The notes beneath the pieces were generated by a model. It saw only the letters and a program-made list of their open reading frames with translations. It did no database searches and was not told the origin of the DNA. A program made the translations under genes and the position numbers. Positions 2,447 through 51,655 of a stretch of 64,000 nt of DNA are shown here, piece by piece. Origin of the DNA: Longimicrobiales bacterium (GTDB lineage: Bacteria > Gemmatimonadota > Gemmatimonadetes > Longimicrobiales > Gaopeijiaceae). Position 1 is the first letter of the stretch. Every line of letters starts with the position of its first letter. The DNA lies in the NCBI GenBank assembly GCA_965204735.1, contig OZ242008.1, positions 2,368,001 to 2,432,000 of the forward strand, written 5' to 3'.

Positions 2447-2489
2447 GCATCACGGCGGAGGTGCGCCGATGACCGCCGACGCCTCTGGG

Positions 2490-3563
2490 CTACCCTGCCC
2501 GGCCCTCCCGCGTCCGGCTTGACGGCTTCGCCCGCCACAGCGCCGCAACGCTGCCCGGGGCCGCGATCAGCTCGAACGCGGTGATCCACGCACGCTGGGC
2601 GACGGCCAGAACGACGCTCGCCTCAAGACCCAGCGTGGGCTCCGCCATGGCGATCATCGCAGCCTCCCGAACGCCGACCCCTGCCGGGGCGAAGACGGCG
2701 ACGTAGCCCGCCAAGTACGCGCCGGCAAAGACGGTCGTGCAGAACAGAAAGGAGCCGTCGGCGCCGATGCTTCTGGCAAGCAAGAAGAACGCGAGCCCGT
2801 AGACGAACCACTTGCCGGCGAACGCGGCGATCCACGGCAGCGGCGCGAGCCCAGCCACCGACCGCGGGTCGAACTCGACCTCGGACCGCCGGCGTCGATG
2901 GAGCTTCCTCACCGCCCACTCCAGCGTCGCTCGCACGGGTCCGGAGCGCGTCAGGCCGACCAAGATCAGCAGGACGACGGCCCCCATCGCCGCAACTGAT
3001 CCCCAGGTGACGCCCGACAGCTGGAGCACCGCCCATCCACCGACGAACACGCCCGCTGCCAGGTGCATCAGCTGACTGTAGAGCGACGCCGCGGTTGCGA
3101 CGGGCGCAGGACAAAGCGCCCTCTTGGCCAGGACCGCCACTCCGACGACGTTCAGGACCTTCCCCGGAACGTACCGTCCGAAGTTGGCCAGGATGAGGAT
3201 CGCAGCGGCCGTGTGCAGGGGGACAAGAGGTCCCCCAAGTCGCTTCACCAACCTTCGCCACACCCAGCCGCCCAGCACGAGTTCCCCGAACAGCGCTGCG
3301 AAGGACGCGAGCAGGAGCAGCACGTCCAGTTGCACCAACGTCCAGTCGATCGCGCGTATCTCCGACAGCTGGGCGTCGACGCTCCGCAGCACGAACCAAG
3401 TGACCAGCACCGTCAGCGCCAGCTTGGCAGCCAGCACGCCGTACTTTGCATAGACGGCGGTGCTGTTGTCGCTAGCCCCCGACGCTGTGTCGTTCGCTCC
3501 CGACGACTGCTCGTTGGCCTCTGCGGGCGGGCCTGATTGCCCAGAGCGGGGGATGGTCGTCAA
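2490..3563 (-). CDS. Lysylphosphatidylglycerol-synthase TM-like / flippase-like membrane protein
   Basis: Multiple TM segments; GRYVPGKV and APAGVGVREAA motifs; start uncertain. Confidence 0.8.
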   Translation of the reverse strand: MTTIPRSGQSGPPAEANEQSSGANDTASGASDNSTAVYAKYGVLAAKLALTVLVTWFVLRSVDAQLSEIRAIDWTLVQLDVLLLLASFAALFGELVLGGWVWRRLVKRLGGPLVPLHTAAAILILANFGRYVPGKVLNVVGVAVLAKRALCPAPVATAASLYSQLMHLAAGVFVGGWAVLQLSGVTWGSVAAMGAVVLLILVGLTRSGPVRATLEWAVRKLHRRRRSEVEFDPRSVAGLAPLPWIAAFAGKWFVYGLAFFLLARSIGADGSFLFCTTVFAGAYLAGYVAVFAPAGVGVREAAMIAMAEPTLGLEASVVLAVAQRAWITAFELIAAPGSVAALWRAKPSSRTREGRAG

Positions 3564-3609
3564 GTCGGCCGGGAGCGAGGAGACGACAGGTGGCTTGACG
3601 CGACGTCGC

Positions 3610-6267
3610 TCACTTCGAGTCCCCGGTCTGGGGCACCTTCAGGGTCTTCGGGCGACGGCCCAAGAACCGGGCCAGCAGCGGAGTCGCCAGCATGAGTCCC
3701 ACCGCAAGGGCCGAGGCCACGCTGACCCGAAGCGCGCGCGCCACCGTGGGCGCCGTGTAGCGCAGCTCGACCACGTGTTCGCCCGCCGTGGGCAGGGCAA
3801 TGGCTTGAAGGGTCACGTTGACCCGGTGGACTTCGGCCGGCGCGCCGTCGACTTCCGCCACCCAGCCCGGGAACCAGTTCTCGGAGACGATCAGCAGTCC
3901 TGGGCTGTGGTTGGTCACGCGGATCCGCCGGTAGTCGGCCTCGGCCGTCTCCCAGACGACGGCACCGGCCGCCTCCGCAACCTCCTCGCCGGAAGGAGCG
4001 GCCAGCGCACCGAAGAACTCGGGCGCGGGCCGGGACGCGACCGCCTCCCTGGCCGGGTCGAAGTCGCGCGACAGAACCCTGGCCAGGGCGGCCTCGTCGT
4101 CGTCCACGACGGTGGCAGACCCCACGACCCACGCCTTCTCCAGTCCCGGGTAAGCGTAGACGGCCTCGCCGCCTCCGGCCGTCGTGCTGAGTGCTTGGGC
4201 GCCCTCCCAGGGGGGTCGTCCCGCCCGCCCCAACGGCCAGACGACGTACTTGACGTTGAGCATCCGCAGGACGTTGGGGTGGTTGGTGTTGGCCCCGGAC
4301 ACCTCGCTGCCTGCAAGTCCCAGCAGCTGGCGGTAGCGCGCCAAGTCGTTCGGGTGGTGTCCGCCCACGAGATCCTGCCCGTGCATGGCGTACTCCACGT
4401 TCTGGATGCTCCCCCGCAGGTCCGCGACTCGGAAGGGCGGCGCGCGCTCCTTCTGATCGGCCAGGAAGCGGGTGTTGGCGTCCGGGGCCGCCCATGCGTG
4501 GAAGTCGAAGTTGCGGATGAATGCCCGGTCGATCCGCCCCAGGTCCAGGGCAATCAAGCCCGCCGCGACGACGACGGCCACGGTTGCCGACACCTTCCCT
4601 TCCATGACCGCCCAGAGGATCGTCGCGACCAACCCCGCCAGCACGAGCGCGATCCCGAAGCCTCGGGTGGCGAAGGGCTCCAGCCTGGCCAGCGCCGCCG
4701 AGGCTTGCGCGTCTGCGCCGGCCCCCGGATGCACCACGGTCGTCCAGAAGCGCTCCAGCGCGCCGGTGGACTGCAGAATCAGCCCGAGCAGCAGAAGCGC
4801 GACCGCCCCGAGCAGCACTCGCCCCCTGACGCTTGTCAGAAACGCCCCCGGCGACGGCTTGGCCCGCACCAGGTCGTCCACGCCGACGGCAAGGAGGGTC
4901 GTCGCGCCGAAGCTGACCAGAAACGCCGCCAGCGAAGGCGCCCGGAAGAGGGATATCCCCGGCACGAATTCGTAGAACAGCCTCCACACCGGCGTGTGCG
5001 CGCCAAGGGCGAAGAAGAGCCAGACCAGGGCCATCCCGGCCATGAACCAGCGGAGGCCCGCCGACGCGCCCGACGATGACCCGCCCATTCCATGCCGCCC
5101 GCCCCGTTCGGCTCCCGCGCCCGCCCCGGACGCCCCTTGCCTGTTTCGCGATCCTCTTGGTCGTCCCTTGCGGGACCCCTTCCCGGTCCGCGCCCACGCT
5201 CCCGCCAGCCCGAAGAGCGCCAGCGTCAGGACCGTGACGCCCACGTACTCGTGGTTGAGCTTGACCGCGTTGCGCCCCCAGTAGGTGCTTTCGGCCCACG
5301 CGGCGTCGGCGGCGCTGTTGCCGACGAACTCGGGAACGACCAGCGCGACGGCCTCTTCCGGGTGGAGCGACCAGGAGCTGGAGTAGGCACGTGCTGCTTC
5401 GGGGGACGCGTCCACCGTCGTTGCGGTCCTCCGGGACGCGTCTCCCACGTAGCTGGCCGCCGGAAGCAGTTGGAACGCCGCCAGTCCGCCGCCGAGGAGC
5501 GCGCTCCCAAGAAAGATCGTTGCGGGGTAGAAGCGTCGAGCGCCCGTCGCCCCCTTCCGCCACTTCTGGACGGTGCGGAAGACCGCATACGCCCCCACCG
5601 AGCCGAAGAGGAAGTAGGACGTCTGGAACTGCGTCGTGAGGCACGTCAGGGCCACGGCACCCGCCAGCCCCGCCCCGCTCCGGGCCGACGGCCTTCGCAT
5701 GACCGACTCCGCGCCCCAGAACACCAGAGGCGCGAGCGATGCGACCATCAGCTTCCCGTCGTTGCCCGGCAGCACCAGCGTGACGATTGCCGGGGCCAGC
5801 AGCCACGCGAGCCCTGCCACGGTGGCCGCCCGCCGGTCGAGCCCCAAGCTGCGCACCCAGCCGTGCATGAAGAAGCCGCCCGCCAGCACGTGCAGCACCA
5901 GCTTCCACCCCACCGCGCGGTACGGCTCGGAGACGAGGTACAGCAGGCTGGTCGGGTAGATCGCGTCCCCCCCCGAAAGCGACTCGAAGAACGGTATGCC
6001 GCCGTACTGTCGCGTCCCCCACAGCGGAAAGTCCCCGGCCGCCAGGCGCTCGGCCAAGTACGCCCGGGCCATGTATCCCCCCGCCTGGATCGTGTCCCCG
6101 CCGTACAGCATCGCATCCGAGAAGATGAACTCGGCAAAGAGCACGACGGTCGCGCCCACGTACAGCACCGCCGGGAGCCACCACGGGAGCTGGCCGGCCT
6201 GGAAGCCGCCGGTGAGGGCCGGGTTGGCAGGTCCCGCCTTAGATCGGGCGCGTCGCGAGTTACTCAT
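3610..6267 (-). CDS. YfhO-family polytopic membrane protein (putative GT-C glycosyltransferase)
   Basis: GDFPLW..YGGIPF, FRAP, C-terminal LIVSENWFPGWVAEVDG...GEHVVELRY plus terminal TM. Confidence 0.85.
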   Translation of the reverse strand: MSNSRRARSKAGPANPALTGGFQAGQLPWWLPAVLYVGATVVLFAEFIFSDAMLYGGDTIQAGGYMARAYLAERLAAGDFPLWGTRQYGGIPFFESLSGGDAIYPTSLLYLVSEPYRAVGWKLVLHVLAGGFFMHGWVRSLGLDRRAATVAGLAWLLAPAIVTLVLPGNDGKLMVASLAPLVFWGAESVMRRPSARSGAGLAGAVALTCLTTQFQTSYFLFGSVGAYAVFRTVQKWRKGATGARRFYPATIFLGSALLGGGLAAFQLLPAASYVGDASRRTATTVDASPEAARAYSSSWSLHPEEAVALVVPEFVGNSAADAAWAESTYWGRNAVKLNHEYVGVTVLTLALFGLAGAWARTGKGSRKGRPRGSRNRQGASGAGAGAERGGRHGMGGSSSGASAGLRWFMAGMALVWLFFALGAHTPVWRLFYEFVPGISLFRAPSLAAFLVSFGATTLLAVGVDDLVRAKPSPGAFLTSVRGRVLLGAVALLLLGLILQSTGALERFWTTVVHPGAGADAQASAALARLEPFATRGFGIALVLAGLVATILWAVMEGKVSATVAVVVAAGLIALDLGRIDRAFIRNFDFHAWAAPDANTRFLADQKERAPPFRVADLRGSIQNVEYAMHGQDLVGGHHPNDLARYRQLLGLAGSEVSGANTNHPNVLRMLNVKYVVWPLGRAGRPPWEGAQALSTTAGGGEAVYAYPGLEKAWVVGSATVVDDDEAALARVLSRDFDPAREAVASRPAPEFFGALAAPSGEEVAEAAGAVVWETAEADYRRIRVTNHSPGLLIVSENWFPGWVAEVDGAPAEVHRVNVTLQAIALPTAGEHVVELRYTAPTVARALRVSVASALAVGLMLATPLLARFLGRRPKTLKVPQTGDSK

Positions 6268-36886: not shown

Positions 36887-37237
36887 TGGAGGCGGCGGGA
36901 GTCGAACCCGCGTCCGCGAGAGGTTCCCTCGAAGCCTCTACGTGCGTAGATCGCCGTTCGGTTCACGTCCGGAGGGGTCGGCGAACCACCCTTCCGAGGC
37001 TAGCCACCTGGCGTCTCGCCTGCCGGTTCAGTAGCCGAAACCGGCAAGCCAGCCCGAATCGTCGACGCTTCGTCGGCCTGCCTCGGGCAGGCGGACCGTG
37101 AAGCGGGCTGCTTGGATCAAGCAGCCAGGGCCAAGTCGTTGTTGGCGTTTGATTGGTTCTCGGGAGGTTTCGCGAGGTTCCCGAACCTCGGCACGCAGCC
37201 GCAAAGTCGCCAAACACGTCGAAACCGTGTCGCCCCC
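36887..37237 (-). ncRNA. ssrA: tmRNA; tag peptide ANNDLALAA
   Basis: 5' GGGGGCGACACGGTTTCGAC, 3' T-arm GCGGGTTCGACTCCCGC and acceptor CGCCTCCA; tag frame 37146..37117. Confidence 0.96.
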
Positions 37238-37305
37238 TGGTTGTCAATCCGCGACCGAACCGATCTCGCCGCCTGGAGGGCACGCGCGTCGGCCGTCGCA
37301 CTCCG

Positions 37306-37314
37306 AATGTACCA
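37306..37314 (-). promoter_or_regulatory. Possible extended -10 for ssrA
   Basis: TGGTACATT ~70 nt upstream of the mature 5' end. Confidence 0.4.
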
Positions 37315-37502
37315 AGAACGGACCGGATGGGGAAGCCGGCTCGTGGGGCACGCGGGCGGGCCGAGCCCCGGTGGACCGGCCGAGCAACCGGGGCCGCCCG
37401 ACGCGCGGGCGGGCGATTCGCTCCGACGGTGGACCACTCGCCGGCCCAGGCTGGCCGCCCGACGGCGCGCGCGGGGCGATTCGCCCCGATTGCAGGGCTG
37501 GA

Positions 37503-40500
37503 CTACTTGAAGGTGATCGTGCCGGCAAGTCCGACGCGGCGTTCCGGGGGCTGGAAGCCGTCGGTCGCCTGCTCGCCGAAGAAGTCCATCACCAGGCGGA
37601 GGCCGGAGGCCTGCTGCTCGGCGGTCTCGCCGCCCAGCGTCGCCCACTGCGTCCCCACGTTCAGGCGGTAGCCGGCCGCGCCCTGGCGGCTCCAGCGGCC
37701 GAACGGCTTGAGCTGGCTGCCGCCGGGCAGCGCCAACCCGTAGCCGACCTCCATCGCCAAGCCGTCCGGCGCCCAGCCTCGTGTGGCCTGGGGCGCTCCG
37801 AAGCCGTGGGCGGACGGGAAGCCGTGGGTCGGGCCGGCGCCGGGGCTCGCGGGACCACCTTGACCGGTGGCGCCGCCGTGGCCGGCTTGGTCGCCGCCGG
37901 CGGGCACGGCGCCGCGCGGAGCCGTCGGACCCATTGCGCCCACGCGCGGCACGCCCGCGGTCCGCCACACGTCGGCGCCGCCTTGCCACAGCGTCTGCGC
38001 TCCGCCCGAGGCATTGCCCCACGACGGCTCCAGCGAGAACGACAGCCCGCCGTCTTCGCGGCGGGGCTGGATCCGCAGCGCCACGGCCGCGCCCCAATCC
38101 TTGAAGTTCCGGTCCTGGTGGATCAGCAGCATCCGGCCACGGGCGTCGAGGCTCAACCCGCTGCCTTCGTGGGTGAACCCCAGGTCGGCGCCCGCTTCGG
38201 CGCCCATCCCCGTCTCCGCGTCGCCCCGGTCGTAGCGACCGCCCACCTCGATGCGCGTGCGCATGGCGATGCTGCCGCTCGTCCACTGCCCGCCCAGCTC
38301 GGGCGCCAGGCGCACCCGCTGCGCGTCGGCCGTCACGGCCGCCACGTGCACGTCGGACGCGTCGGTCATCATGCGCACGGCGAAGGCGTCGGCCTTGAGC
38401 GCCAAGCCGCCGACCAGCTTCTGGCGCACGCCCAGCGCGCCCATCCGCATCCTCAGGTCGGCGTCGTAGGTGGGACCCTGCTCGCCCACGTTGGCGGCGC
38501 CCATCCCCGCGCCCGCCAAGCCCCATATCCCGAAGCCGCCCTGGGACGACCAGCTGAGGTAGGGGTAGAGGCTGGTCAGGTGGGCCTTCGTCTTGCCCAC
38601 GCCGTTGATCCCGCTCTCGTAGTTGGCGGCCACGTCGCTGCGCGAGCCGGCCAAGCCCATCAGGAAGCCCGAGCCGAAGCGGTAGTCCAGGCCCACGTAC
38701 GCCGAGCGGGTGCGGCCGTCCATGGCGAAGTCGTCTTCGGGACGGCCCTCGAACTCGCCGATGTTGGCCTGGCCCCACAGCGTCCAGCCGGCCTGGGAGG
38801 CCGTCTGCGCCGGGGCGCCGTCGGCGTCGGCGCCGCCCTGCTCGTCGGGCGAGCCGCCGCCGAAGGAGAGCTGGAACGAGCTCCGGGAGCGGAGGTCGCT
38901 GCTCGTCAGCGGGCTGAAGCCGATGCCGCCGCGCTCGCGCTCGGCGGGCAGCGCGCCCTCTTCCCGCTGACCCTGGTACGAGCCGCCTTGTCCGAGCGAG
39001 CCGCTCCCGGCGGCGCCCAAGCCCGCCGCGCCGTCGCCGAAGAGGATCGCCGCCAAGTCCAGCGTCCCGCCGGCGCTGCCGCCGGCGACGCCCGGATGGG
39101 TGATCTGGAACCCGAGCAGGCCGGTTGCGTCCCGCACCAGCGACTCGAGTCCGCAACGGCCCGAACCGGCGTGGGCCGCGGCCGCGCCGCCCTCGCCCGT
39201 GCTGTCCGTTTCGGCGACCGCGACCACGCCAGCGCCAGCGCCGCCGAACGCGAGGCAGCTCAGCGAGCGTCCGCCCAGCTGCACGTGCGAGCGGCCCGGC
39301 GAACCCGACGGCTCCAGACCCAACCGACCGCCGATCGTCTCGACCGTCTCCGTGCCCAGCGACCGACCGAACGCCGCCAGCGTCAGCTTCAGCGCACGCG
39401 CCCGATCCGCACGCGACGCCGACACCGTCACGCTCGCCTGCTGCGTCGCCGCCAAGCCCTCCGCGTCGGTCGCCGTCACCGTCACCACCGACGCGCCGAT
39501 CTCCCGCGGCGACACGGACAGCCGGCCCGCGCCCGACACCGACGCTGCCGCCACGTCCGGCGACGACGACACCACCACGTAGCTCAGCGCGTCGCCGTCC
39601 GGGTCACGGAAGTACTCGCCCAGACCCACCTCCCACGGCGCGCCGCCCACCTCGAGCACCGGCGGCGACAGCGACCCCACCGCCTCCGGCCCCTCGTTCA
39701 CGTCCAGCAGCGTCACCACGACCGCAGCCTCCGCCGTCAGTCCGCCCACGTCCGTCACCCGCACCGTCAGCGCGAACTCCGGCGGACCGTCCTCGTAGTC
39801 CTCGCCGGCGCCTACGTAGCGCACCCGCCCGCTCGCGCCGTCCACTGCGAAGCGGCCCGCGTCGCCCTGCGCCAAGCTGTACGTCAGCGCGTCGTCGCGG
39901 TCCGGGTCCGTCGCCTCGACCCGCCCCAGCTCCCGAGGCCCGCGCACGTTCTCGGCCAGCTCGAAGGCGTACGCGGAGTCCACGAACGCGGGCGCCTCGT
40001 TCACGTCCAGCAACAGCACCTTCACCTTCGCCACCGCCGCCAACCCCGCACGGTCCGTCGCCACCACCTCGAACTCCCAGCCATCAGGACCCGTCTCCGC
40101 GTCCTCGCCAGCGCCCACGTACCGCACCACGCCGCTCGACTCGCCCACGTCGAACAACGCCGCGCCCACGCCGCTCAAGCTGTAGACGAGCGTGTCGCCC
40201 ACGTCCACGTCGGTCGCCTCGACCGCGCCCAGCTCGACCGGGCCCGCCACGTGCTCCGCCAGCTCCCACTCCCAGATCGGCTCGACGAACACCGGGCCCT
40301 CGTTCCGGTCCTCGAGCGTCACCACCACCCGCGTCCGCGCTGTCAGGCCGCCTCGGTCCGTCGCCGTCACCTCCAGCTCCCAGCTGCCCGGACCCGTCTC
40401 CGCATCCTCGCCGGACCCCACGTACCGCACGGCACCGCTCGTCGCGTTCACCTTGAACCGCTCGGCGTCGCCCGCCGTCAGCGCGTACGACAGCCAGTCG

Positions 40501-43500
40501 CCGCCGTCCGGGTCCGTCGCCCGTACCTCGCCCAGCAGCAGCGGGCCACGCTCGTTCTCGGCCAGATCGAAGGCGTACGCAGAGTCGGCGAACGCTGGCC
40601 CCTCGTTCACGTTCGTCAGCGCCACCGCCACGACCGCCTTGGCGCTCGAACCCGCCAGGTCCGTCGCCGTGACTTCCAGCTCCCACGACTTCGGTCCCGC
40701 GCCCTCGTAGTCCTCGCCCGAGCCCACGTACTGCACCGCGCCCGTCACGCTGTCCACGGCGAAGCGATCGGCGTCGCCCGACGCCAGCCGGTACGTCAGC
40801 GTGTCGCCCTCGTCCAGGTCCACCGCCTCCACGGCGCCCAGCGCCAGCGGCCCGGCAGCGTTCTCGGCCATGGCGAAGGCGTAGCGCTCGGCAGTGAACA
40901 CCGGCGCGTCGTTCACGTTCACCAGCCGCACCGTCACCGTCGCGTCGCCCGTCCGCTCACCGTCGTCGGCCGTCGCGCGCACGATCATCACGAACTCCGA
41001 ACGCGACTCCGCGTCCTCGCCCGTCCCCACGTACCGCACCTCGCCGGTGCGAGCGTCCACCTCGAAGAGGCCCTCGTCGCCCGCCGCCAGCGAGTACGCC
41101 ACCTCGCCGCCGAAGGGGTCGGTCGCGCTCACCGTCCCCACCACCACCGGCCCCGCCACGTCCTCCGTCAGCTTGAACTCGTACTCGGCGCGACCGAACA
41201 CCGGGTCCGTGCCGCCAGCCCCGTTCACCTGGTGCTCCTCCAGGTTCTCCACCTCGTGGCCGCTCAAGTCCAGCGCAGCCGCCGTCGTGCCGCCCGCGAT
41301 CCGCAGCGCAGCGCCGCCCGTCGCAGTCAGCGCGTCGGCAGCGATGCTGATCCCGTCCTCGTCCCGGTCCGCAGGCTGCACCACGTACTCGAACACCACC
41401 GCCGGCGTGCCCGAACCCGACGCGTAGCTCGCCTGGCGCACGGCCGTCCCGATCTCGATCGACAGCTGCGGCGCGCCCACCACCTCGACCGGCCTGCTGA
41501 ACGTCACCGCCACCCGGATCACGCTGCGCGGACCGTACAGCCCGCTCGCGCCCGGCGTGCTCGTCACCGCCATCGCCATCACCGCCGGAACCGCTTCGAC
41601 CGTGCCGTCCACCTTGTCGTTCGCCGCCGCCGCGATCGCATGGCTGCCCAACGCCAGCACCGCCGGACGAACCCCGTCCGCCGTGTTCACGATCGTCGCG
41701 CCGTTCAGCGTCAGCGCAGCAGCTGCCACGCCCACGCCGTCGGCGTCGGCGTCCACGCCGCCCGTCCCGCTGCCGCCACTGCCCGCGCCCTGCACGCGGT
41801 ACGCGAACGACAGCGTGGCCGTGCCGCTGCCGCCGACGTAGCTCGCCTGACGCGTCGCCGTGCCCACCGTCAGCGCGAGCTGCGGCGCGCCCGTCACCGT
41901 CACCGCGCGGTCGAACGTCACCTGCACCTCGATCCGCTCGCCCAGGCCGTACGTGTCGCCGCTCTCCGGCGTGCTCGACACCGCAACGCCGCTCACCGAC
42001 GCGCCCGCCAGCGTGCCGTCCACCTTGTGGCCCGCAGCAGCGCTCAACGCGTGGCTGCCCAGTCCCAGCGCCGCCGCAGTCGAGCCGTCGCGGGCGTCGT
42101 TGATCGTCCCGCTGTTCAGCGCCAGCGCGCTCGCGCCGATGCTGATCCCGTCGGTGTCGGCGTCCGCCGCCGCCACCGTGTAGCGGAACGTCAGCGTGTG
42201 CGTGCCCGTCCCGCTCGCGTAGTCCGCCTGCCGCGTCGCAGCGCCCACCGTCAACGCCACCTGCGGCGTGTCCGTCACCGCCACGCGACGGTTGAACGTC
42301 ACCTGCACCTCGATCTGCTCGCCCCGCGCGTACGTCGTCGCCACCGCCGGCGAACTCGTCAGCGACACGCCGCTCACCGACGCCGCCGTGAACGTCCCGC
42401 CCGCAACCTTGTGGCCCGCGCTGTTCGTCACCGCGTGGGCGCCCAGCCCCAGAACGGCGTCCACCGTGCCGTTCGCCACGTCGATCATTCCGCCGTTCAG
42501 CGCCAACGCGCTCGCGCCGATGCTCAGCCCGTCGGCGTCCACGTCCGCCGTCACCACGACGTACCGGAACACCAGCGACGCCGTGCCCGTCCCCGAAGCG
42601 TAGCTCGCCTGCTTCGTCGCAGCGCCGATCGTCAGCGCCAGCTGCGGCGTGCCCGTCACGTCCACTCCCTTGTTGAACGTCACCGTCGCGATGATCGTGT
42701 CGCCACGCTCGAAGGTGTCGCCGATCGGCGGCGACGCAATCGACACGCCGCTCACGCCCGGCGGGCCCTGGCTCCCGTCCACGGCCTGGCCCGAAGCGTT
42801 CGTGATCGCGTGCGACCCCAGCCCCAGGCCCGCCGCCGTCGAACCGTCGCGAGCGTCCGAGATCGTCCCGCCGTTCAGCGCCAACGCGCTCGCACCGATG
42901 CTCAACCCGTTCGCGTCCGAGTCGCTCGACTGCACCGTGTAACGGAACGTCAGCACTCGACCGCCCGCCCCCACGCTCGTCGCCGAATCGTACGCCGCCT
43001 GCCGCGTCTGGCTCCCGATCGTCAGCGCCAGCTGCGGCGCGCCCGTCACGCTCACGTGGCGGTCGAACGTCACCTCGACCTCGATCTCCTCGCTCAACCC
43101 GTACACGCTCCCGTCCGCCGGGCTGCTCGCAATCGACACGCCGCTCACCGCCGACGCCGTGAACGTCCCGCCCGCAACGCGCAACGCGCCGTCGTTGCTG
43201 ATCGCATGATGCGCCAAGCTCAGCAACGCGTCCGTCGTCCCGCCCGCCACGTCGATCGTCCCGCTGTTCAGCGCCAGCGCGCTCGCACCGATGCTCAACC
43301 CGTCGGTGTCCACGTCCGCCTGCACCACCACGTACCGGAACACCAGCGACGTCGTGCCCGTCCCCGAAGCGTAGCCCGCCTGCCGAGTCTGCGTCCCAAT
43401 CGACAACGCCAGCTGCGGCGTGCCCGTCACGTCCACCTGCTTGTTGAACGTCACCGTCGCAACCACCGTGTCGCCACGCTCGAACGTGCCGCCCACCAGC

Positions 43501-46500
43501 GGCGAAGCCACCGACAACCCCGCCACCCCCGGCGGCCCCTGGCTGCCGTCCACCTTGTGCGCCGCAGCGTTCGTCACCGCGTGCGACCCCAAGCTCAACG
43601 CCGCAGCAGCAGCGCCCGGACGCACGTCCGCAATCGACCCGCCGCTCAGCGTCAACGCGCTCGCGCCGATGCTCAACCCGACCGTGTCCGCGTCCGCAGG
43701 TCGGACCGCGTACCCGAACACCAGCGTGTCCGCCTTGCTCGTCGCCGAATCGTAGGCCGCCTGCCGCGTCTGCGTGCCAATCGTCAGCGCCAGTCGCGGC
43801 GTGCCCGTCACCGCCACCGGACGACTGAACGCCACCTTCACCTCGATCGACTCGCCCAGCTTGTACGTGCTGTCCGCCGCCGGAGCGCTCGATATCGCGA
43901 CCGCGCTCACCGCCGGCGTCGTGAACGTCCCGCCCGCAACCTTGTGTCCAGCGCTGTTCGCCACCGCGCTCGCGCCCAGTCCCAGCAGCGCGTCCAGCGT
44001 ACCGCCCGCAACCTTGATCGTCCCGCCGTTCAACGCCAACGCGCTCGCGCCGATGCTCAACCCGTCGGTGTCCGCGTCGCCGCTCGCCACCACGTACTGG
44101 AACGCCAGCGTGTCCGTGCCCGTCCCGCTCGCGTACTCCGCCTGCCTGGTCGCGTTCCCGATCGTCAGCGCCAGCTGCGGCGTGCCCGTCACGTCCACCG
44201 CCCGCGTGAACGCCAACGACACCTCGATCGTCTCGCCGCGCTCGAACGTGTCGCCCACCGTCGGAGAACTGATCGACAGCGCCGTCACACCCGGCGGACC
44301 AACGCTCCCGTTCACCTTGTGCGCCGCCGCGTTCGAGATCGCGGCCGAACCCAGTCCCAGGCTCGCCGCCGTCGTTCCGTCCCGCGCGTCGGCGATCGTA
44401 CCGCCGTTCAGCGTCAGCGCGCTCGCGCCGATGCTGATCCCCGTCGAGTCCTCGTTCGTCGCCACCACCGTGTAGCTGAACGCCAGCGTGTTCGTCCCGC
44501 TCCCGCTCGCGTCGTACGCCGCCTGCACCGTGTCGTTCCCGATCTCCAGCGCCAGCTGCGGCGCACCCGTCACCGTCACCGCCCGCGTGAACTCCACATC
44601 GACCTCGATCTGCTCCGTCCGACCGTACGTGCTGTCGCTCGACGGTACGCTCGTGATCGACACGCCGCTCACCGCCGACGCCGTGAACGTCCCCCCAGCC
44701 ACCTTGTGTCCAGCGCTGTTCGTCACCGCATGGCTGCCCAACCCCAGCAACGCGGCCCTCGTCGTGCCCGCCTGCCGGATCGTGCCGCCGTTCAGCGTCA
44801 ACGCGCTCGCACCGATGCTGATCCCGACCGTGTCCGAGTCCGCAGCCACCACCGTGTACCGGAACACCAGCGTGTCCGTGCCCGTGCCCCTCGCGTAGTC
44901 CGCCTGCCGCGTCAGCGTGTCGACCTCCAGCGCCAGCTGCGGCGTCCCCGTCACTTCCACCGCCGTGTTGAACACCACCGACGCCTCGATCGTCTCGCCC
45001 CGCTCGAACGTGTCGCCCACCAGCGGCGAACCAATCGACAACCCGGCCACGACCGCCCCCTGGCCGCCGTCCACCTTCCGCGTCCCGTCGTTCGCCACGG
45101 CCAGCACACCCAAGCCCCTGAACGGCCCGCGCGCATGTGGCCACGACTGAAGATTCCCGCCGTTGAACGCATTCGCCGCGATGCTGATCCCGTCCGCGTC
45201 CATGTCCGAAGCCTGCACCACGTAACGGAACGTGAAGCTCCCGTGCCGGTTCCCGCCTCCGGCTGTCCACGTCGCCTGACGCGTCGAGTCGCCAATCGAC
45301 AGCGCCAGCTGCGGCCCCGACAGCACCACCAGGTCGCCGGAGAACGTCACCGTCGCCTCGATCGTCTCGCCTATCGCGTACGTGTCGCCCGAACTCGGCG
45401 TGTTCAGCGTCAAGCCGCTCGGACCCCGCAACTCGCCCGGGCTCACCCTCTCGCCCGTAAGCCCGCTCCTCAAGTCCAGGATCGCCGCCCTGCTGCTCCC
45501 AGCCTCGTTGATCGTGCCACCGTTCAGCGTCAATGCATCCCGCGCCACCGTGTACGGGTCCGCACCCGAGTTGTCGTAGCCGTGCACCAGATACCGGAAC
45601 ACCAACGCCGTCGTGCCCGTCCCCGACGCGTACTCGGCATGCCGCGTCGCGCTCCCGATCACCACCGCCACACGGGGCGTACCCGTCACGTCCACCGCCC
45701 TGTCGAACGTCACCGTCACCTGTATCCACGCCCCCGCATGGAAGTGGGAAGCCCACACAGCCTTCGAGCCCGTCAGCGCCGCACTCGCCACAACGGGCGG
45801 CGGCAACACGCTCCCGTCCACCTTGTGCGCCGCCGCGTTCGCCACCGCTTGCGCCCCCAAACCCAAGCTCGCCGCCGTCGAGCCGTCCCGAGCGTCGAAG
45901 ATCGTCCCGCCGTTCAGCCCCAACGCGCTCGCCCCGATGCTCAACCCGTCCGTGTCCGCGTCCGCCTGCACCACCACGTACTGGAACACCAGCGTGTCCG
46001 CCGTGCTCGACCCCGACACGTACCCCGCTTGACGCGTCTGCGTACCGATCGTCAGCACCACCTGCGGCGTGCCCGTCACCGCCACCGACCGGTTGAACAC
46101 CACCTGCACCTCGATCTCCTCGCCCCGCCTGTACGTGCTGTCGCCCGCCACCGAACTGCTCGCGATCGACAACCCGCTCACCGACGCCGCCGTGAACGTC
46201 CCCCCAGCCACCTTCCGGCCCGAATGGTTCGCTATCGTCCGACCCGTCAAGTCCAGCAACGCGTTCACCGTCGTCTGCTGACGCCTGACCGTGCCTCCGT
46301 TCAGCGTCAACGCGCCCGCCTCCACGCTCAACCCGTCCGCGTCCGCATCGCCACTCGCCACCACGTAGTCGAACACCAGGAACCACGAGCCCGACGCCCC
46401 GCTGTTGTAGCTCGCCTGACGCGTCGCGCTCCCGATCCGCAACGCCAACCGCGGCGACCCCGTCACCGCCACAGGACCGCTGAACACCACGAACGCACGA

Positions 46501-49500
46501 ATCGTGTCCCCGCGCTCGAACGTGTCCCCCACCACCGGAGCGTCTACCGTCACCCTGTTCACAACCACCGCGTTGCCCGCCACCTTGTGCGCCCCAGCGT
46601 TCGTCACCGCGTTCGACCCCAACCCCAGGCTCGCCGCCGCCGTCCCGCCCGCCAGCACGATCGTACCGCCGTTCAGCGCCAGCGCCGTCGAGTCCACGCT
46701 GATCCCGTCCGCGTCCACGTCCGACGCCCCCACCGTGTGCCGAAACGCCAGAATGTCCGTGCCCGTCCCGCTCGCGTACGACGCCTGCACCGTGTCGCTC
46801 CCGATCCGCAACGCCAACCGCGGCGTGCCCGTCACCGTCACCGCACGATCGAACACCACCTCCACCTCGATCACGTTCCCCGCCGCATACGTCGAGTCCG
46901 GACCCGCGTCGCTCGTTATCGTCACACCGCTCACGCCCGGCGCCGTCTCCTTGCCACCGTCCACCTGGAACAGCACGGAGTTCGCAAAGTTCCACGGCGA
47001 CAAAGACAGGTTCGCGTCCCCCGTCGTGCCCTGCCGCCGGATCGTCGACCCCGACGGCAACGTCAGCGCGTTCGCCCCGATGCTGATCCCCGTCGTGTCC
47101 ACGTCCGACGCCACCACCGTGTAGCAGAACACCACGATCGTCTCGCCCGACTTGTCGCAGTACGACGCCTGCCGCGTCTGCGAATCGATCCCCAGCGCCA
47201 CACGCGGCGGCTGCGCACCCGCTTCCACGTCCACCGCCACGTTGAACCCGACGCCCACCCGAATCACGTCCCCAAGCCCGAACACGCTGTCCGTGCTCGC
47301 GTACGAAAGCCCAGTGTTGTCAGCGTCCAAGAAGAACACGCTCGCCACTACAGGAACGTACGCGCCCCACACCTGGTGCGCCGCCGCGTCCGCGATCGCG
47401 TGGCTCCCCAGCGCCAAGTACGCGTTCGTCGTGCCGCCCGATGCCCTGATCGTCCCGCTGTTCAGCGCCAATGCGCTCGCCCCGATGCTGATCCCCGTCG
47501 AGTCCCTGTCCGCCGTCACTACCACATATTGGAACACCAGCGAGTTCGTGCCCGTCCCGCTCGCGTACTCCGCCTGCCGCGTCAGCGTGTCGACCTCCAG
47601 AGCCACCTGCGGCACGCCCGTCACCGCCACCGTCGAGTCGAACGTCACCGTCACCTCCACCGTGTCCCCAGCGGCGTAGATGCTGTCAGCGCCCGCGTCG
47701 CTCGAAATCGCCAGCCCCGTCACCATCGGCAACCCCTGCGAGCCGCTCACCTTGTGCGTCGCCGCGTTCGCGATCGCGTGGCTCCGCAACCCCAAGTACG
47801 CGTTCACCGTGCCGGAACCCGCCCGCCGGATCGTCGTCCCCGCCGGCAGCGTCAGCGCGCTCGCTCCGATGCTGATCCCCGTCGTGTCCGCGTCGGCCAA
47901 CTGCACCACGTAACGGAAGGTCAGCGAATCGCCGCCCGTACCGCTCGCGTAGCTCGCCCGTCGCGTCTGCGTCCCGATCGTCAGCTCCAGCCGCGGCGTT
48001 CCCGTCACGTCCACGTTCTCGTTGAACACCACCGCTACTTGTACCGTGTCGCCCGCCGCATACGTGTTGTCGCTCCCCGCGTTGCTCGCAATCGACGCGC
48101 CCGTCACGTGAGGCACCGCCTGAGCCCCGTTCACCTTGTGCGCCGAGAGGTTGAGGAGCGGCGTGAAGTCCAAGAACGCGTTCGCCGCGCCCGCCGGCGC
48201 TCCTTGCGTCCTGACGTAGTCGCTTCCGCCCAACGTCATGCTGTCGACGCTGAGCCCGTCCGCGTCCAAGTCGGCCAGCACCGGATTGTACCGCCAGTGA
48301 ATGGTTCTCGTGCCAGTGTTGACGTTCTGAACGTAGCCCTCGCGGACATTCTCTCCAATCGTCAGCCACAGGCCCGAACCCGCCGTCGTAACCGACGCGT
48401 CTATGCCCCGATCGAACACCACGAAGAAGTCGATGATGTCGCCCATGGCCCACGTCTCGTCGGACCCCGAGCCGCTGGGCAACGTAACGCTCGCTATCTT
48501 GGGCACTTGCCACACACGGTGCGCACGGTCGTCCGTGACGACGTGACTCCACAAGCTCAGGTACACATTCACCCCCGCCCTTCTGATCGTCGCCCCCGAC
48601 GGCAGCGTCAGAGCATTGCGCCCGTAGCTGATCCCGTTCGTGTCGCTGTCTCCCGGCGCCACCACGTAGTTGAACCTCAACGTTGCGGTGCCCGTCCCCG
48701 ACACGTAGCTCGCCTGCACCGTCGACGACATTATCAGCGCCAGCTGCGGCGTACCCGTCACGTCCACCGCTTGGCTGAACACGACCTCTATCGCGATCGT
48801 GTCCCCCTCCACGTAGATGCTGTCGGCGCCCGGATCGCTCGTGAACGACGTGCCCGTCACGATCGTCGCACCCGACGTCAGCACCTTGTGGGCCGCCGCG
48901 TTCGCCACAACGAAGTTCACTGTCGTCAGCGACGCGTCCACCGTCGTGCTGCCCGCCCGCCTGATCGTCCCGCCGTTCAACGTCAGCGCGCTCCCCCCGA
49001 TGCTCAACCCGTCCGAGTCCGCGTCGCCGCTCGCCACCACGTAGCGGAACGTCAGCGAATCCGTCCCCGTGCCGCCCGCGTAGCTCGCCTGCCGCGTCTG
49101 CACGCCGATCCCCAGCGCCAGACGCGGCGCGCCCGTCACGTCCACGCTCTCGTTGAACACCACCGCTACTTGCACCGTGTCGCCCGCCGCATACGTGCTG
49201 TCCGTCCCCGCATCGCTCGTGATCGGCATCCGCACCACCGCCGGCGGCCCCGCCAAACCATCCACCTTGTGGGCCGCAGCTTCGGCGACCCTGTGGACCC
49301 GCAAGCCCAGGTACGCGTTCACCACGGACCCCGCCCGCCGTATCGTCCCGCCGTTCAACGTCAGCGCGCTCGAGCCGATGCTGATCCCCGTCGAGTCGAC
49401 ATCCCCAGGCCCTACCGTGTAGCGGAACACCAGAGAATTGCCTCCGCTCCCCAGAGAGTAGACCGCTTGCCGAGTCTCCGTCCCCATCGCCATCGCCAGC

Positions 49501-50591
49501 CGCGGCGAGCCCGTCACGTCCACGTTCTCGCTGAACCAAAGACCGATCTCGATCACGTCGCCCCGAGCGTACGTGCTGTCGTTCCCCGCTTCGCTCTCAA
49601 TCGTCGTGTTCGTCACGTGAGGCACCGCCTGAGCGCCGTTCACCTTGTGGGTGACCGTATCCGTCAAAGTCACCGCTGCAAGCGAATTGTCCGCCTCAAC
49701 CAAGGTGCCCTCGAGGCGGACGGCGCCCGTGTTCGTCAATGCGCCCGCCGGCAAGCTTATGCCGTCCTCGTCCAAGTCCGCCTCCGTCACCAAGTATCGA
49801 AACCATACCGCCCAGGGGTTCTGCTGGAACGGCATCGCCGTCACCGTGTCCTCCCCGATCTCGATCGCCAGCCTCATCTGCTGCCACGTCGGCTTGTCCA
49901 CACGGGCGTCCCACGTGATGCGCAACGCGAGGTAGTCGCCCGCAGCGTACGTGTCGTCGCCCCCCGGGTCCGTCTCGATCGGAAAGTGTATCGCGGCCAT
50001 CGACGGCCTGCGCGCAACCTGGTGACTCCTGTCGTCGCCGATCGCGTGGGTCCCCAACCCCAGGGTCGCGTTCACCGTGCTCGACCCCGCCCGCCGGATC
50101 GTCGCCCCCGACGGCAACGTCAGCGCCGTCGAGTCCACGCTGATCCCGTCGGAGTCCCTGTCGGTGGACGACCCCGGCAGCACGTAGCGGAACATCAACG
50201 AATCCGTCCCCGTCCCCGAAACGTAGTCCGCCTGCCGCGTCAGCGTGTCGACCGTCAAGGCCAGCTGCGGCGTCCCCGTCACGTCCACCGAATCGCTGAA
50301 CACGACCACGACGCTGATCGTGTCCCCCTGAACGTACGTGCTGTCGCTCCCCGCGTCGCTCGTGATGCTCACGCCGCTCACGCTCGGCGCCGTCTGGGCG
50401 CTCAAGGGCACCGACGGCAAGGCTGCCGCCAGAAGGCCCAGGAGCGCCAGCGCAGTACGCCCTGCCGACAGCATCAGGCCGACCCTCCGATGCGGATCAG
50501 GCACGACAGCCGCTCGCTGCAGGAGGGAGGGGGAGGGGGGGGGGGGGGGGGGGGGGTAGACAAGAGGGGTGCGCGTACGGACGCTCGTCAC
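37503..50591 (-). CDS. Giant repetitive surface protein/adhesin (~4300 aa) with autotransporter-like C-terminal beta-barrel
   Basis: Signal peptide ...ALLGLLAAALPSVPLSA-Q; 24 ~125-aa repeats; 5 cadherins; Ig/cadherin-like FRDPDGDALSY; helix + barrel (WTLWGQ, YVGLDYRF, GGRYDRGDAETGMG, EVGYG). Start GTG 50591 or ATG 50474. Confidence 0.88.
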   Translation of the reverse strand: MTSVRTRTPLVYPPPPPPPSPSLLQRAAVVPDPHRRVGLMLSAGRTALALLGLLAAALPSVPLSAQTAPSVSGVSITSDAGSDSTYVQGDTISVVVVFSDSVDVTGTPQLALTVDTLTRQADYVSGTGTDSLMFRYVLPGSSTDRDSDGISVDSTALTLPSGATIRRAGSSTVNATLGLGTHAIGDDRSHQVARRPSMAAIHFPIETDPGGDDTYAAGDYLALRITWDARVDKPTWQQMRLAIEIGEDTVTAMPFQQNPWAVWFRYLVTEADLDEDGISLPAGALTNTGAVRLEGTLVEADNSLAAVTLTDTVTHKVNGAQAVPHVTNTTIESEAGNDSTYARGDVIEIGLWFSENVDVTGSPRLAMAMGTETRQAVYSLGSGGNSLVFRYTVGPGDVDSTGISIGSSALTLNGGTIRRAGSVVNAYLGLRVHRVAEAAAHKVDGLAGPPAVVRMPITSDAGTDSTYAAGDTVQVAVVFNESVDVTGAPRLALGIGVQTRQASYAGGTGTDSLTFRYVVASGDADSDGLSIGGSALTLNGGTIRRAGSTTVDASLTTVNFVVANAAAHKVLTSGATIVTGTSFTSDPGADSIYVEGDTIAIEVVFSQAVDVTGTPQLALIMSSTVQASYVSGTGTATLRFNYVVAPGDSDTNGISYGRNALTLPSGATIRRAGVNVYLSLWSHVVTDDRAHRVWQVPKIASVTLPSGSGSDETWAMGDIIDFFVVFDRGIDASVTTAGSGLWLTIGENVREGYVQNVNTGTRTIHWRYNPVLADLDADGLSVDSMTLGGSDYVRTQGAPAGAANAFLDFTPLLNLSAHKVNGAQAVPHVTGASIASNAGSDNTYAAGDTVQVAVVFNENVDVTGTPRLELTIGTQTRRASYASGTGGDSLTFRYVVQLADADTTGISIGASALTLPAGTTIRRAGSGTVNAYLGLRSHAIANAATHKVSGSQGLPMVTGLAISSDAGADSIYAAGDTVEVTVTFDSTVAVTGVPQVALEVDTLTRQAEYASGTGTNSLVFQYVVVTADRDSTGISIGASALALNSGTIRASGGTTNAYLALGSHAIADAAAHQVWGAYVPVVASVFFLDADNTGLSYASTDSVFGLGDVIRVGVGFNVAVDVEAGAQPPRVALGIDSQTRQASYCDKSGETIVVFCYTVVASDVDTTGISIGANALTLPSGSTIRRQGTTGDANLSLSPWNFANSVLFQVDGGKETAPGVSGVTITSDAGPDSTYAAGNVIEVEVVFDRAVTVTGTPRLALRIGSDTVQASYASGTGTDILAFRHTVGASDVDADGISVDSTALALNGGTIVLAGGTAAASLGLGSNAVTNAGAHKVAGNAVVVNRVTVDAPVVGDTFERGDTIRAFVVFSGPVAVTGSPRLALRIGSATRQASYNSGASGSWFLVFDYVVASGDADADGLSVEAGALTLNGGTVRRQQTTVNALLDLTGRTIANHSGRKVAGGTFTAASVSGLSIASSSVAGDSTYRRGEEIEVQVVFNRSVAVTGTPQVVLTIGTQTRQAGYVSGSSTADTLVFQYVVVQADADTDGLSIGASALGLNGGTIFDARDGSTAASLGLGAQAVANAAAHKVDGSVLPPPVVASAALTGSKAVWASHFHAGAWIQVTVTFDRAVDVTGTPRVAVVIGSATRHAEYASGTGTTALVFRYLVHGYDNSGADPYTVARDALTLNGGTINEAGSSRAAILDLRSGLTGERVSPGELRGPSGLTLNTPSSGDTYAIGETIEATVTFSGDLVVLSGPQLALSIGDSTRQATWTAGGGNRHGSFTFRYVVQASDMDADGISIAANAFNGGNLQSWPHARGPFRGLGVLAVANDGTRKVDGGQGAVVAGLSIGSPLVGDTFERGETIEASVVFNTAVEVTGTPQLALEVDTLTRQADYARGTGTDTLVFRYTVVAADSDTVGISIGASALTLNGGTIRQAGTTRAALLGLGSHAVTNSAGHKVAGGTFTASAVSGVSITSVPSSDSTYGRTEQIEVDVEFTRAVTVTGAPQLALEIGNDTVQAAYDASGSGTNTLAFSYTVVATNEDSTGISIGASALTLNGGTIADARDGTTAASLGLGSAAISNAAAHKVNGSVGPPGVTALSISSPTVGDTFERGETIEVSLAFTRAVDVTGTPQLALTIGNATRQAEYASGTGTDTLAFQYVVASGDADTDGLSIGASALALNGGTIKVAGGTLDALLGLGASAVANSAGHKVAGGTFTTPAVSAVAISSAPAADSTYKLGESIEVKVAFSRPVAVTGTPRLALTIGTQTRQAAYDSATSKADTLVFGYAVRPADADTVGLSIGASALTLSGGSIADVRPGAAAAALSLGSHAVTNAAAHKVDGSQGPPGVAGLSVASPLVGGTFERGDTVVATVTFNKQVDVTGTPQLALSIGTQTRQAGYASGTGTTSLVFRYVVVQADVDTDGLSIGASALALNSGTIDVAGGTTDALLSLAHHAISNDGALRVAGGTFTASAVSGVSIASSPADGSVYGLSEEIEVEVTFDRHVSVTGAPQLALTIGSQTRQAAYDSATSVGAGGRVLTFRYTVQSSDSDANGLSIGASALALNGGTISDARDGSTAAGLGLGSHAITNASGQAVDGSQGPPGVSGVSIASPPIGDTFERGDTIIATVTFNKGVDVTGTPQLALTIGAATKQASYASGTGTASLVFRYVVVTADVDADGLSIGASALALNGGMIDVANGTVDAVLGLGAHAVTNSAGHKVAGGTFTAASVSGVSLTSSPAVATTYARGEQIEVQVTFNRRVAVTDTPQVALTVGAATRQADYASGTGTHTLTFRYTVAAADADTDGISIGASALALNSGTINDARDGSTAAALGLGSHALSAAAGHKVDGTLAGASVSGVAVSSTPESGDTYGLGERIEVQVTFDRAVTVTGAPQLALTVGTATRQASYVGGSGTATLSFAYRVQGAGSGGSGTGGVDADADGVGVAAAALTLNGATIVNTADGVRPAVLALGSHAIAAAANDKVDGTVEAVPAVMAMAVTSTPGASGLYGPRSVIRVAVTFSRPVEVVGAPQLSIEIGTAVRQASYASGSGTPAVVFEYVVQPADRDEDGISIAADALTATGGAALRIAGGTTAAALDLSGHEVENLEEHQVNGAGGTDPVFGRAEYEFKLTEDVAGPVVVGTVSATDPFGGEVAYSLAAGDEGLFEVDARTGEVRYVGTGEDAESRSEFVMIVRATADDGERTGDATVTVRLVNVNDAPVFTAERYAFAMAENAAGPLALGAVEAVDLDEGDTLTYRLASGDADRFAVDSVTGAVQYVGSGEDYEGAGPKSWELEVTATDLAGSSAKAVVAVALTNVNEGPAFADSAYAFDLAENERGPLLLGEVRATDPDGGDWLSYALTAGDAERFKVNATSGAVRYVGSGEDAETGPGSWELEVTATDRGGLTARTRVVVTLEDRNEGPVFVEPIWEWELAEHVAGPVELGAVEATDVDVGDTLVYSLSGVGAALFDVGESSGVVRYVGAGEDAETGPDGWEFEVVATDRAGLAAVAKVKVLLLDVNEAPAFVDSAYAFELAENVRGPRELGRVEATDPDRDDALTYSLAQGDAGRFAVDGASGRVRYVGAGEDYEDGPPEFALTVRVTDVGGLTAEAAVVVTLLDVNEGPEAVGSLSPPVLEVGGAPWEVGLGEYFRDPDGDALSYVVVSSSPDVAAASVSGAGRLSVSPREIGASVVTVTATDAEGLAATQQASVTVSASRADRARALKLTLAAFGRSLGTETVETIGGRLGLEPSGSPGRSHVQLGGRSLSCLAFGGAGAGVVAVAETDSTGEGGAAAAHAGSGRCGLESLVRDATGLLGFQITHPGVAGGSAGGTLDLAAILFGDGAAGLGAAGSGSLGQGGSYQGQREEGALPAERERGGIGFSPLTSSDLRSRSSFQLSFGGGSPDEQGGADADGAPAQTASQAGWTLWGQANIGEFEGRPEDDFAMDGRTRSAYVGLDYRFGSGFLMGLAGSRSDVAANYESGINGVGKTKAHLTSLYPYLSWSSQGGFGIWGLAGAGMGAANVGEQGPTYDADLRMRMGALGVRQKLVGGLALKADAFAVRMMTDASDVHVAAVTADAQRVRLAPELGGQWTSGSIAMRTRIEVGGRYDRGDAETGMGAEAGADLGFTHEGSGLSLDARGRMLLIHQDRNFKDWGAAVALRIQPRREDGGLSFSLEPSWGNASGGAQTLWQGGADVWRTAGVPRVGAMGPTAPRGAVPAGGDQAGHGGATGQGGPASPGAGPTHGFPSAHGFGAPQATRGWAPDGLAMEVGYGLALPGGSQLKPFGRWSRQGAAGYRLNVGTQWATLGGETAEQQASGLRLVMDFFGEQATDGFQPPERRVGLAGTITFK
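39688..41204 (-). repeat. Five tandem cadherin domains
   Basis: P.F....Y.F.L.EN....LG.V.ATD.D...L.Y.L ...DVNE.P Ca-binding pattern x5. Confidence 0.85.
41205..50395 (-). repeat. 24 tandem ~125-aa beta-rich (Ig-like) repeats
   Basis: Consensus TY..G..I.V.V.F...V.VTG.PQLAL.IG..TRQA.Y.SG.GT..L.F.Y.V...D.D.DG.SI...AL.LNGGTI...HKV; counted by eye. Confidence 0.9.
50535..50556. repeat. G22 homopolymer (C22 on adhesin coding strand)
   Basis: Direct reading; adjacent GGAGGGAGGGGGA extends the purine run. Confidence 0.9.
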
Positions 50592-50681
50592 TGTTGTCGT
50601 CTCCGTCTCGACTTGGTTCAGGGCGATGGCAAGGGCGAATCTCCGAGTCACTCCACGATAGCAATATATGGCATCACGGTA

Positions 50682-50721
50682 CAACCAAGTCAAGCCGGTC
50701 AACCAAGTCAAGCCGGTCAAC
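50682..50721. repeat. 18-bp tandem duplication at the xerD stop codon
   Basis: CAACCAAGTCAAGCCGGT x2 + CAAC. Confidence 0.9.
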
Positions 50722-51655
50722 TCCGGCTTCGCGGGTGGTGCTCCCGGTGGACCTGACGCAGGTGCTCCCGGTTCAGGTGGGTGTAGATCTGGGTGGTCGC
50801 CACGTCGGCGTGGCCCAGCAGCTCCTGGACCGCCATCAAGTCGGCTCCGCCTTCCAGCAGATGGGTGGCGCAGCTGTGGCGGAGGGTGTGGGGCGTGATC
50901 CTGCGCTCGACGCCGGCGCGCTTCGCCGAGCGGGAGACGATCGTCCACACCGCCATGCGGGTCAGCCGTCCGCCCCGGTGGTTCAGGAAGAGGGCGCCTT
51001 CGCCGCGTCCCTTGTCCAGCTTCGGACGAAGTGCCGAGAGGTACCGCCGCACCGCGTTCACGGCCGCCGACCCCAGGGGCGCCAAGCGCTCCTTTCCGCC
51101 CTTGCCCAAGACCAGGCAGCTGCCGTCGGTCAGGTCCACGTCGGCCACGGACATGCCGGTCAGCTCGCTCACCCGCATCCCGGTGGCGTAGAGCACCTCC
51201 AGCACCGCCCGGTCGCGCCAGTGGACGGGCGAGTCGGGGTCCACCGCCTCCATGACGCGCTTGGCCTCGGCCTGGGTCAGGAACTCGGGCAGCTTCTTCC
51301 CCGGCTTGGGAGCGTCCATGCGCTCCGTCGGGTCCTCGGCGACGATCTCTTCCGCCGTCAGGAAGGCAAAGTAGGCCCGCAGCGACGACTGGGCCCGCCG
51401 GATCGTCGACGACGCCCTTCCCTTGGCCCGAAGGTGGGCCAGGTAGTCGTGGAGGACGTGGTGGCCGATCTGCGACGGCCGCGGGCCGGCGACTCCCGCG
51501 TCCGCGTCGGAGAAGAACGCCAGGAAGCGCTTCACGTCGCTCTCGTAGGAAGCAGCGGAGCGCGGACGCAGCCCCCGCTCCAGCACCAGGTAGTCCAGGA
51601 ACGGCTCCACGTAGAACCGCCGCCGGAGCGCGTCGGCGTCGGACTCACGCGCCAC
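50717..51655 (-). CDS. xerD: Tyrosine recombinase XerD-like
   Basis: FLDYLVLERGL, RDRAVLEVLYATGMRVSEL, GKGGKER, PHTLRHSCATHLLEGGADL, LLGH, TQIYT. Confidence 0.9.
   Translation of the reverse strand: MARESDADALRRRFYVEPFLDYLVLERGLRPRSAASYESDVKRFLAFFSDADAGVAGPRPSQIGHHVLHDYLAHLRAKGRASSTIRRAQSSLRAYFAFLTAEEIVAEDPTERMDAPKPGKKLPEFLTQAEAKRVMEAVDPDSPVHWRDRAVLEVLYATGMRVSELTGMSVADVDLTDGSCLVLGKGGKERLAPLGSAAVNAVRRYLSALRPKLDKGRGEGALFLNHRGGRLTRMAVWTIVSRSAKRAGVERRITPHTLRHSCATHLLEGGADLMAVQELLGHADVATTQIYTHLNREHLRQVHREHHPRSRS

Follow-up and report, generated by a model that had tools for sequence, protein, structure and literature searches.

A poly-C tract between two possible start codons of a giant putative adhesin gene and its relatives in Longimicrobiales

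What does a run of 22 cytosines do between two possible start codons of a giant gene? The run (C22; 50535..50556, minus strand) lies at the 5' end of a putative adhesin gene in a 64,000-nucleotide stretch, here called the window, that spans positions 2,368,001 to 2,432,000 of contig OZ242008.1 from a Longimicrobiales bacterium. Longimicrobiales is an order of Gemmatimonadota (PMC10469786; papers cited by PMC number were available in part and are cited for those parts). The genome is a single contig of 4.14 Mb with 69% GC. The bacterium likely lives in sponges, because the 18 sequencing runs that hold all or part of the stretch include four labelled sponge metagenome and four labelled marine metagenome (the other ten carry coded organism names). 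The reading that we favor, with a probability of about 0.52, is that C22 is a slipped-strand frameshift switch operating from the upstream GTG codon, with a leaky OFF state. Judged from its sequence, the tract is most likely a genuine contingency locus, familiar in kind but found in an unexpected host.

Two possible start codons flank the tract

The upstream GTG (50589..50591, minus strand) and the ATG at 50474 are 117 nt apart on the minus strand and share a frame, so that initiation at the GTG would add a 39-residue leader, with seven prolines at C22. The GTG has a Shine-Dalgarno (SD) motif, GGAG (50601..50604, minus strand), 9 nt upstream, with a calculated pairing energy of -7.1 kcal/mol against the 16S end of the same genome. 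The second start has a stronger one, GGAGGG (50483..50488, minus strand; GGAGG 9 nt upstream of the ATG; -10.0 kcal/mol), that is predicted to sit in a stable structure. These positions agree with the initial annotation, which had placed C22 between a GTG and a signal-peptide ATG, each with an SD 9 nt upstream.

When tract length is varied in silico, C22 gives VTSVRTRTPLVYPPPPPPPSPSLLQ, in frame into the adhesin. C21 (and also C18, C24 and so on) ends the leader at a TGA at -2 that overlaps the second ATG as TGATG (50472..50476, minus strand), a geometry that could support translational coupling. C23 (and also C20, C26 and so on) ends it at a TGA (50497..50499, minus strand) at -25 from the second ATG. 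The outcome recurs every three bases. The three readings proposed by the initial annotation were thus reproduced; they are a property of any frameshift tract, and only their meaning is in question.

RNA folding predicts that the GTG site is accessible (opening cost 12.8 kcal/mol, median 13.3). The second ATG site is, by folding only, predicted to be buried at every tract length (22-24 kcal/mol, 90th percentile 20.9), and its predicted opening cost falls only to 16.7 kcal/mol when the footprint at the -25 stop is left unpaired. Length-dependent hiding of the second SD by the poly-C was considered and rejected, as its opening cost stays at 23.4-24.5 kcal/mol from C0 to C30.

A relaxed consensus scan found its best promoter match upstream of the GTG, about 110 nt upstream of C22, and none between the tract and the ATG. 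This candidate sigma-70-type promoter (50655..50693, minus strand) combines TTGACT (50693) with either TATATT (50668, 19-nt spacer) or an extended -10 element, TG-n-TATCGT (50660). A strict scan with spacers of 16-18 nt gave no match at the locus. C22 neither lies between nor abuts the -35 and -10 elements, the position of tracts in promoter-spacing switches of the porA/fetA type.

Long tracts mark adhesin 5' ends in four genomes

Runs of G or C fall off steeply with length in this genome (168 of length 7, 15 of length 8 and one of length 9), and a separate set of 29 runs is 10-36 long. Against this background the length of C22 is far beyond chance. By rough gene calls, 12 of the 17 giant adhesin-family genes of the genome (G000) have a long run at the 5' end, and all 12 runs are poly-C on the sense strand. 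Other long runs are in or near restriction-modification and membrane genes.

The initial annotation had proposed looking for tracts at the same position in other giant surface genes, here and in relatives, and beyond the 12 of 17 in G000 the design is repeated in the three other genomes of the genus (G001-G003). Eleven adhesin 5' ends in G002 have poly-C and one has poly-G; in G003 a 5' run is present in 11 of 17 adhesin regions examined, the 5' end possibly having been missed in two; and in G001 it is present in one of six. Outside the genus, 47 further homologs of the adhesin's C-terminal barrel had their 5' end reached; three have a nearby run, and two of these, in a Nitrospirales and an alphaproteobacterial genome, share the design. 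No adhesin-leader design was found in 18 regions of G006 or two of G008, and pattern scans of metagenome contigs gave no match. Many of the runs listed for G007, G022 and G040 are near contig starts or clustered.

Several observations accompany this survey. Related barrels in Nitrospirales and alphaproteobacterial genomes come with long runs of C or G, located within or close to the 5' region (L107, L108, L110 and L113). Long G/C runs also occur inside apparent restriction-modification or methyltransferase genes (G000 2687460, 3424558 and 4095654; L016, L019, L040, L066, L080, L162, L163 and L174). These were labelled by eye and homology and some are out of frame; they may be phasevarions in Gemmatimonadota. 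A 12,934-codon adhesin of G000 (2771495-2811411) has no tract, and its barrel is in another frame than its passenger, owing to a frameshift or an assembly error.

Most tracts lie in a probably translated leader, a few at putative promoters

Excluding promoter-type loci (among them G000:1448582, L028 and L057), we assembled a leader-type set of 31 loci from the four genomes. An ATG or GTG occurs within 60 nt upstream of the tract in 30 of the 31, and an ATG within 30 nt in 23, where 0.24 would be expected in intergenic DNA; the upstream sequences fall into 22 families. In all 31 the adhesin frame has no stop between the tract and the signal peptide, which by itself is weak evidence, given that about 83% of ordinary starts pass the same filter. 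An SD of -5 kcal/mol or stronger precedes the second ATG in only five of 30 loci (L046 excluded), compared with 58% of ATG genes. Because upstream starts are so general and second SDs so few, and because the promoter match at the window locus precedes the GTG, ribosomes most likely start ahead of the tract and translate across it. The initial annotation's proposal of translation through the tract from an upstream start is supported by the 30 of 31 loci that have one.

In four promoter-type loci the run abuts TTGACA or forms the spacer between -35 and -10. One adhesin subfamily, represented in three species (G000 1448582, L028 and L057), has poly-C runs of 33, 19 and 26 directly abutting a TTGACA -35 element. 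In a G003 adhesin (L042:808-821), a G14 run is the spacer between TTGACT and TATAAT, a textbook arrangement for a promoter-spacing switch. In two non-adhesin genes of G003 (L071:1050 and L071:3282), a strong SD and an ATG are followed by poly-C of 17 and 16 and, about 20 nt later, by a second ATG with ATGA, the same two-start design.

Sister tracts differ in length between samples

The initial annotation had also called for a comparison of tract lengths across samples, and sister tracts do differ between conspecific samples, as seen in contigs and partly deduced from contig ends; homopolymer sequencing error can mimic part of these differences. The sister tract at G000:1530078 (C16) is bridged exactly, with zero difference, in run X2, which is possibly the source sample. 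At the same tract, two flanking contigs of X8 both end at 14 C, which may indicate a mixture, and X4 and X7 have six and seven extra unaligned letters, suggesting C22 or longer and C23 or longer, although the letters themselves are not displayed. At a second sister tract (2606898), a bridging X8 contig is 4 nt shorter than the C19 leader of the assembly. Duplicated segments with identical flanks have G19 and G14, and orthologous genes of different species have runs at the same place with lengths of C33 and C19.

The genome encodes the elongation factor EF-P, which is needed for the translation of polyproline. The idea that mismatch repair is absent was rejected on finding both mutS and mutL.

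A frameshift switch and its alternatives

In the proposed switch, transcription would start upstream of the GTG, and ribosomes would likely initiate there and cross the tract. Only every third length (C19, C22, C25) would lead into the adhesin frame, giving an ON product with an extended signal peptide that is presumably cleaved off. At other lengths the leader would end on the second ATG or shortly ahead of it, and production would likely drop to a residual level from that ATG; this residual output may differ between the two OFF frames, which we take to be a by-product. With twelve such switches acting independently, the population could become a mixture of surface types. The anatomy of the locus, the targeting of tracts to adhesin genes, the recurrence of the design and the length differences at sister tracts are observed; which start is used, how much protein results and whether switching is reversible are inferred. 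The contingency locus proposed by the initial annotation is supported by the concentration of tracts at adhesin genes (12 of 17), the three related genomes, the tracts in restriction-modification genes and the length differences among sisters, and the 11 of 30 leader loci that are assembled in frame are near the one in three of such a switch.

Several points weigh against it. The second SD of the window locus is the strongest of 30 loci and exceeds that of the GTG (-10.0 and -7.1 kcal/mol), so the OFF state may not be fully silent. The window locus has as its upstream start a GTG, 35 nt from the tract; in most sisters this start is an ATG closer to the tract. A plain switch would not lead one to expect the unequal out-of-frame states (15:4). 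Since some family members (G000:1448582, L028 and L042) use promoter-type tracts, one mechanism does not cover all of them. No contig of X1, X3, X5 or X6 bridges C22, so that 22 is the assembly value and the variability of the window tract is deduced from its sisters. Finally, with MutS and MutL present, lower slippage rates would be expected.

The uneven states are among the reasons to consider selection for three expression levels, a possible but tentative reading. Here the in-frame length would give a fusion, one base less would place a stop on the second ATG and allow re-initiation at an intermediate or high level, and one base more would leave the buried start largely silent. The '+1' frame meets its first stop within -2 to +13 of the first in-frame ATG behind the tract in 27 of 31 loci, and such a near-stop is present in seven of eight linker families (p about 0.035 against a null of 0.5, computed by hand). 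In this genome, however, 0.44-0.52 of ordinary ATG starts have such a near-stop (TGATG alone at 0.04 of them), as do 0.26 of internal ATGs, the paralogs share ancestry, and four loci stop elsewhere (-26, -29, -80 and +34). In the main signal-peptide family, 16 of 19 members keep a TAG formed from a rare GTA or CTA codon, and the three without it all have TGATG; the third-position A is nevertheless kept in 19 of 19, and because it stays where TAG is lost, TAG retention may be mere gene-start codon bias. Assembled states are 11 in frame, 15 '+1' (one base short) and 4 '+2' (one base long; binomial p 0.019), compared with 22/10/10 among the other tracts (42 classed of at most 85, by an automatic and noisy procedure). 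The 10:10 split there gives no sign of a one-base assembly bias, and such a bias is unsupported as a source of the '+1' excess. Yet the difference between adhesins and other tracts is not significant (Fisher p 0.096), a single genome contributes seven of the 15 '+1' loci, G000 itself has 6/2/2, and the skew may reflect the cost of a long '+2' junk peptide.

The window locus is the extreme case for three levels. A complete signal peptide begins at the second Met, TGATG supplies a coupling geometry at C21, and the strongest second SD of the set is predicted to be buried at every length and to be opened only partly by the -25 stop, a set-up where coupling would matter. The -25 state is not shared, though: the first '+2' stop falls between -25 and +13 in three of 31 loci, and mostly this frame runs far into the gene. 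Of the initial annotation's suggestion that the locus may tune rather than simply switch adhesin output, the geometry of stop and ATG at the window locus stands; selection for three levels is at best tentative, the near-stop being common and the -25 state unshared. The sequence signals for unequal OFF states may be called borderline in favor, short of proof. The broader claim, that sponge-associated Longimicrobiales have a family-wide cassette of start, poly-C and stop on the native start, placed before an intact start and signal peptide, by which slippage would set a dozen giant adhesins to one of three levels (fused, re-initiated or silent), is about as tentative.

Alternatively, the ATG at 50474 could be the sole real start and the tract part of a 5' untranslated region (UTR), where its length would alter mRNA level or initiation through structure, a small RNA or slippage in transcription, and not the frame. 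In line with this arrangement, the ATG has a strong SD, begins a complete signal peptide and is followed by A-ending codons, as at gene starts; one-base linker differences occur between the sister loci L001 and L008, and tracts downstream of a promoter that act through a small RNA in Helicobacter (PMC4235727) are a precedent. We nevertheless regard it as unlikely: predicted accessibility of both starts is nearly constant from C0 to C30, upstream starts are enriched beside the tracts, and most second ATGs have no SD. By far the least probable view takes the run for an artefact of long-read assembly or for neutral DNA of low complexity. Homopolymer lengths are unreliable (PMC4235727), contigs break at the tract, and apparently random runs of 12-15 in ordinary genes of G006 indicate that such artefacts may exist in assemblies of this family. 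Against this, four separate assemblies show the runs targeted to the 5' ends of adhesin genes, on one strand, X2 contigs reproduce C16 at the sister locus exactly, and orthologous genes of different species have runs at the same place. The G006 runs themselves (L178-L195) are mostly 12-16 C or G long, spread across ordinary genes, with one breaking a conserved gene; these are probably long-read errors.

The adhesin and its surroundings

The open reading frame (37503..50474, minus strand) encodes 4323 residues, in keeping with the approximately 4300 of the initial annotation, and its architecture suggests an adhesin. A complete Sec-type signal peptide, MLSAGRTALALLGLLAAALPSVPLSA (50397..50474), was recognized by eye; paralogous signal peptides were aligned. 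It is followed by 24 tandem repeats of about 128 residues each (residues ~30-3097; 41184..50387; phmmer self-scan) and by cadherin-like repeats (residues ~3100-3620; 39615..41177; PF00028, E 9.5e-32, three stretches). The C-terminal region (37503..38702) resembles an autotransporter beta-barrel. Its first ESM Atlas hits (0.98, 0.95 and 0.95) are named autotransporter, and PF03797 is found in 33-100% of their members; the region itself has no PF03797 or other Pfam or NCBIfam match, so that the barrel is read from language-model features alone. All these features are on the minus strand. A 4552-codon open frame antisense to the adhesin (37098-50756, plus strand) is likely a by-product of high GC content.

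The upstream neighbor is xerD (50717..51655, minus strand; TIGR02225, 340 bits over a cut-off of 329.6). Directly after its stop is an 18-nt tandem duplication that contains TTGACT twice (50681..50716, minus strand). A similar 22-nt duplication of the promoter region occurs at a sister locus in run X4. In run X5, 6 nt are inserted close to the xerD stop, with divergence just beyond. No positional ortholog of the window adhesin was found in G001-G003, where xerD (L034, L033 and L035, respectively) is followed by other genes. The sites of the adhesin genes vary from species to species, and each gene has a leader of its own, which suggests frequent movement or gain.

Comparison with known systems

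Most documented cases of repeat-driven phase variation are from pathogens of humans and animals. A literature search of titles and abstract starts, which covered a minority of the subscription papers and none of the supplements, found nothing on such variation in sponge symbionts or Gemmatimonadota and no phase variation graded by coupling or re-initiation; with that coverage, absence from print is not established. These tracts are also easily missed, since short-read assemblies break exactly at them. If twelve giant adhesins do switch independently, an uncultured symbiont could vary its surface against host cells or phages, and a re-initiation dial, if real, would add a mechanism for graded phase variation.

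The closest parallels are Neisseria autA/autB (PMC5118866) and Haemophilus lav (PMC9022572), where, as at the window locus, the repeat is just after the start, in or ahead of an autotransporter signal sequence, and one length in three is in frame. By western blot, lav is ON at 21 repeats and OFF at 22 and 23 (PMC9022572). Those genes have 4-nt repeats, whereas the loci described here have C13-C31 homopolymers that encode polyproline and precede a complete signal peptide beginning with a Met of its own; their proteins have 3,400-13,300 residues, and the genes occur in 12 copies in an uncultured member of the Gemmatimonadota. The poly-C of Neisseria nalP/mspA (PMC4235727) and the poly-G of pilC (PMC5320596) are likewise homopolymers in the 5' coding region of surface protein genes that switch by frameshift. 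The pilC tracts are shorter (G9-G15; PMC5320596), and in the accessible parts of these two papers no second start that has a strong SD is described downstream of the tract.

Haemophilus lic2A-type loci are reported to obtain more than two expression levels from one repeat tract by means of several initiation codons (as cited in PMC4235727). Their additional starts precede the repeat and are in different frames, whereas the window locus has its second start behind the tract, and grading would therefore call for re-initiation. In number, the 29 long tracts of G000 compare with the 12-27 G/C tracts per genome that give Campylobacter jejuni its combinatorial phasotypes through poly-G loci (PMC4235727), although C. 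jejuni is AT-rich and lacks mismatch repair, whereas G000 has 69% GC and both mutS and mutL.

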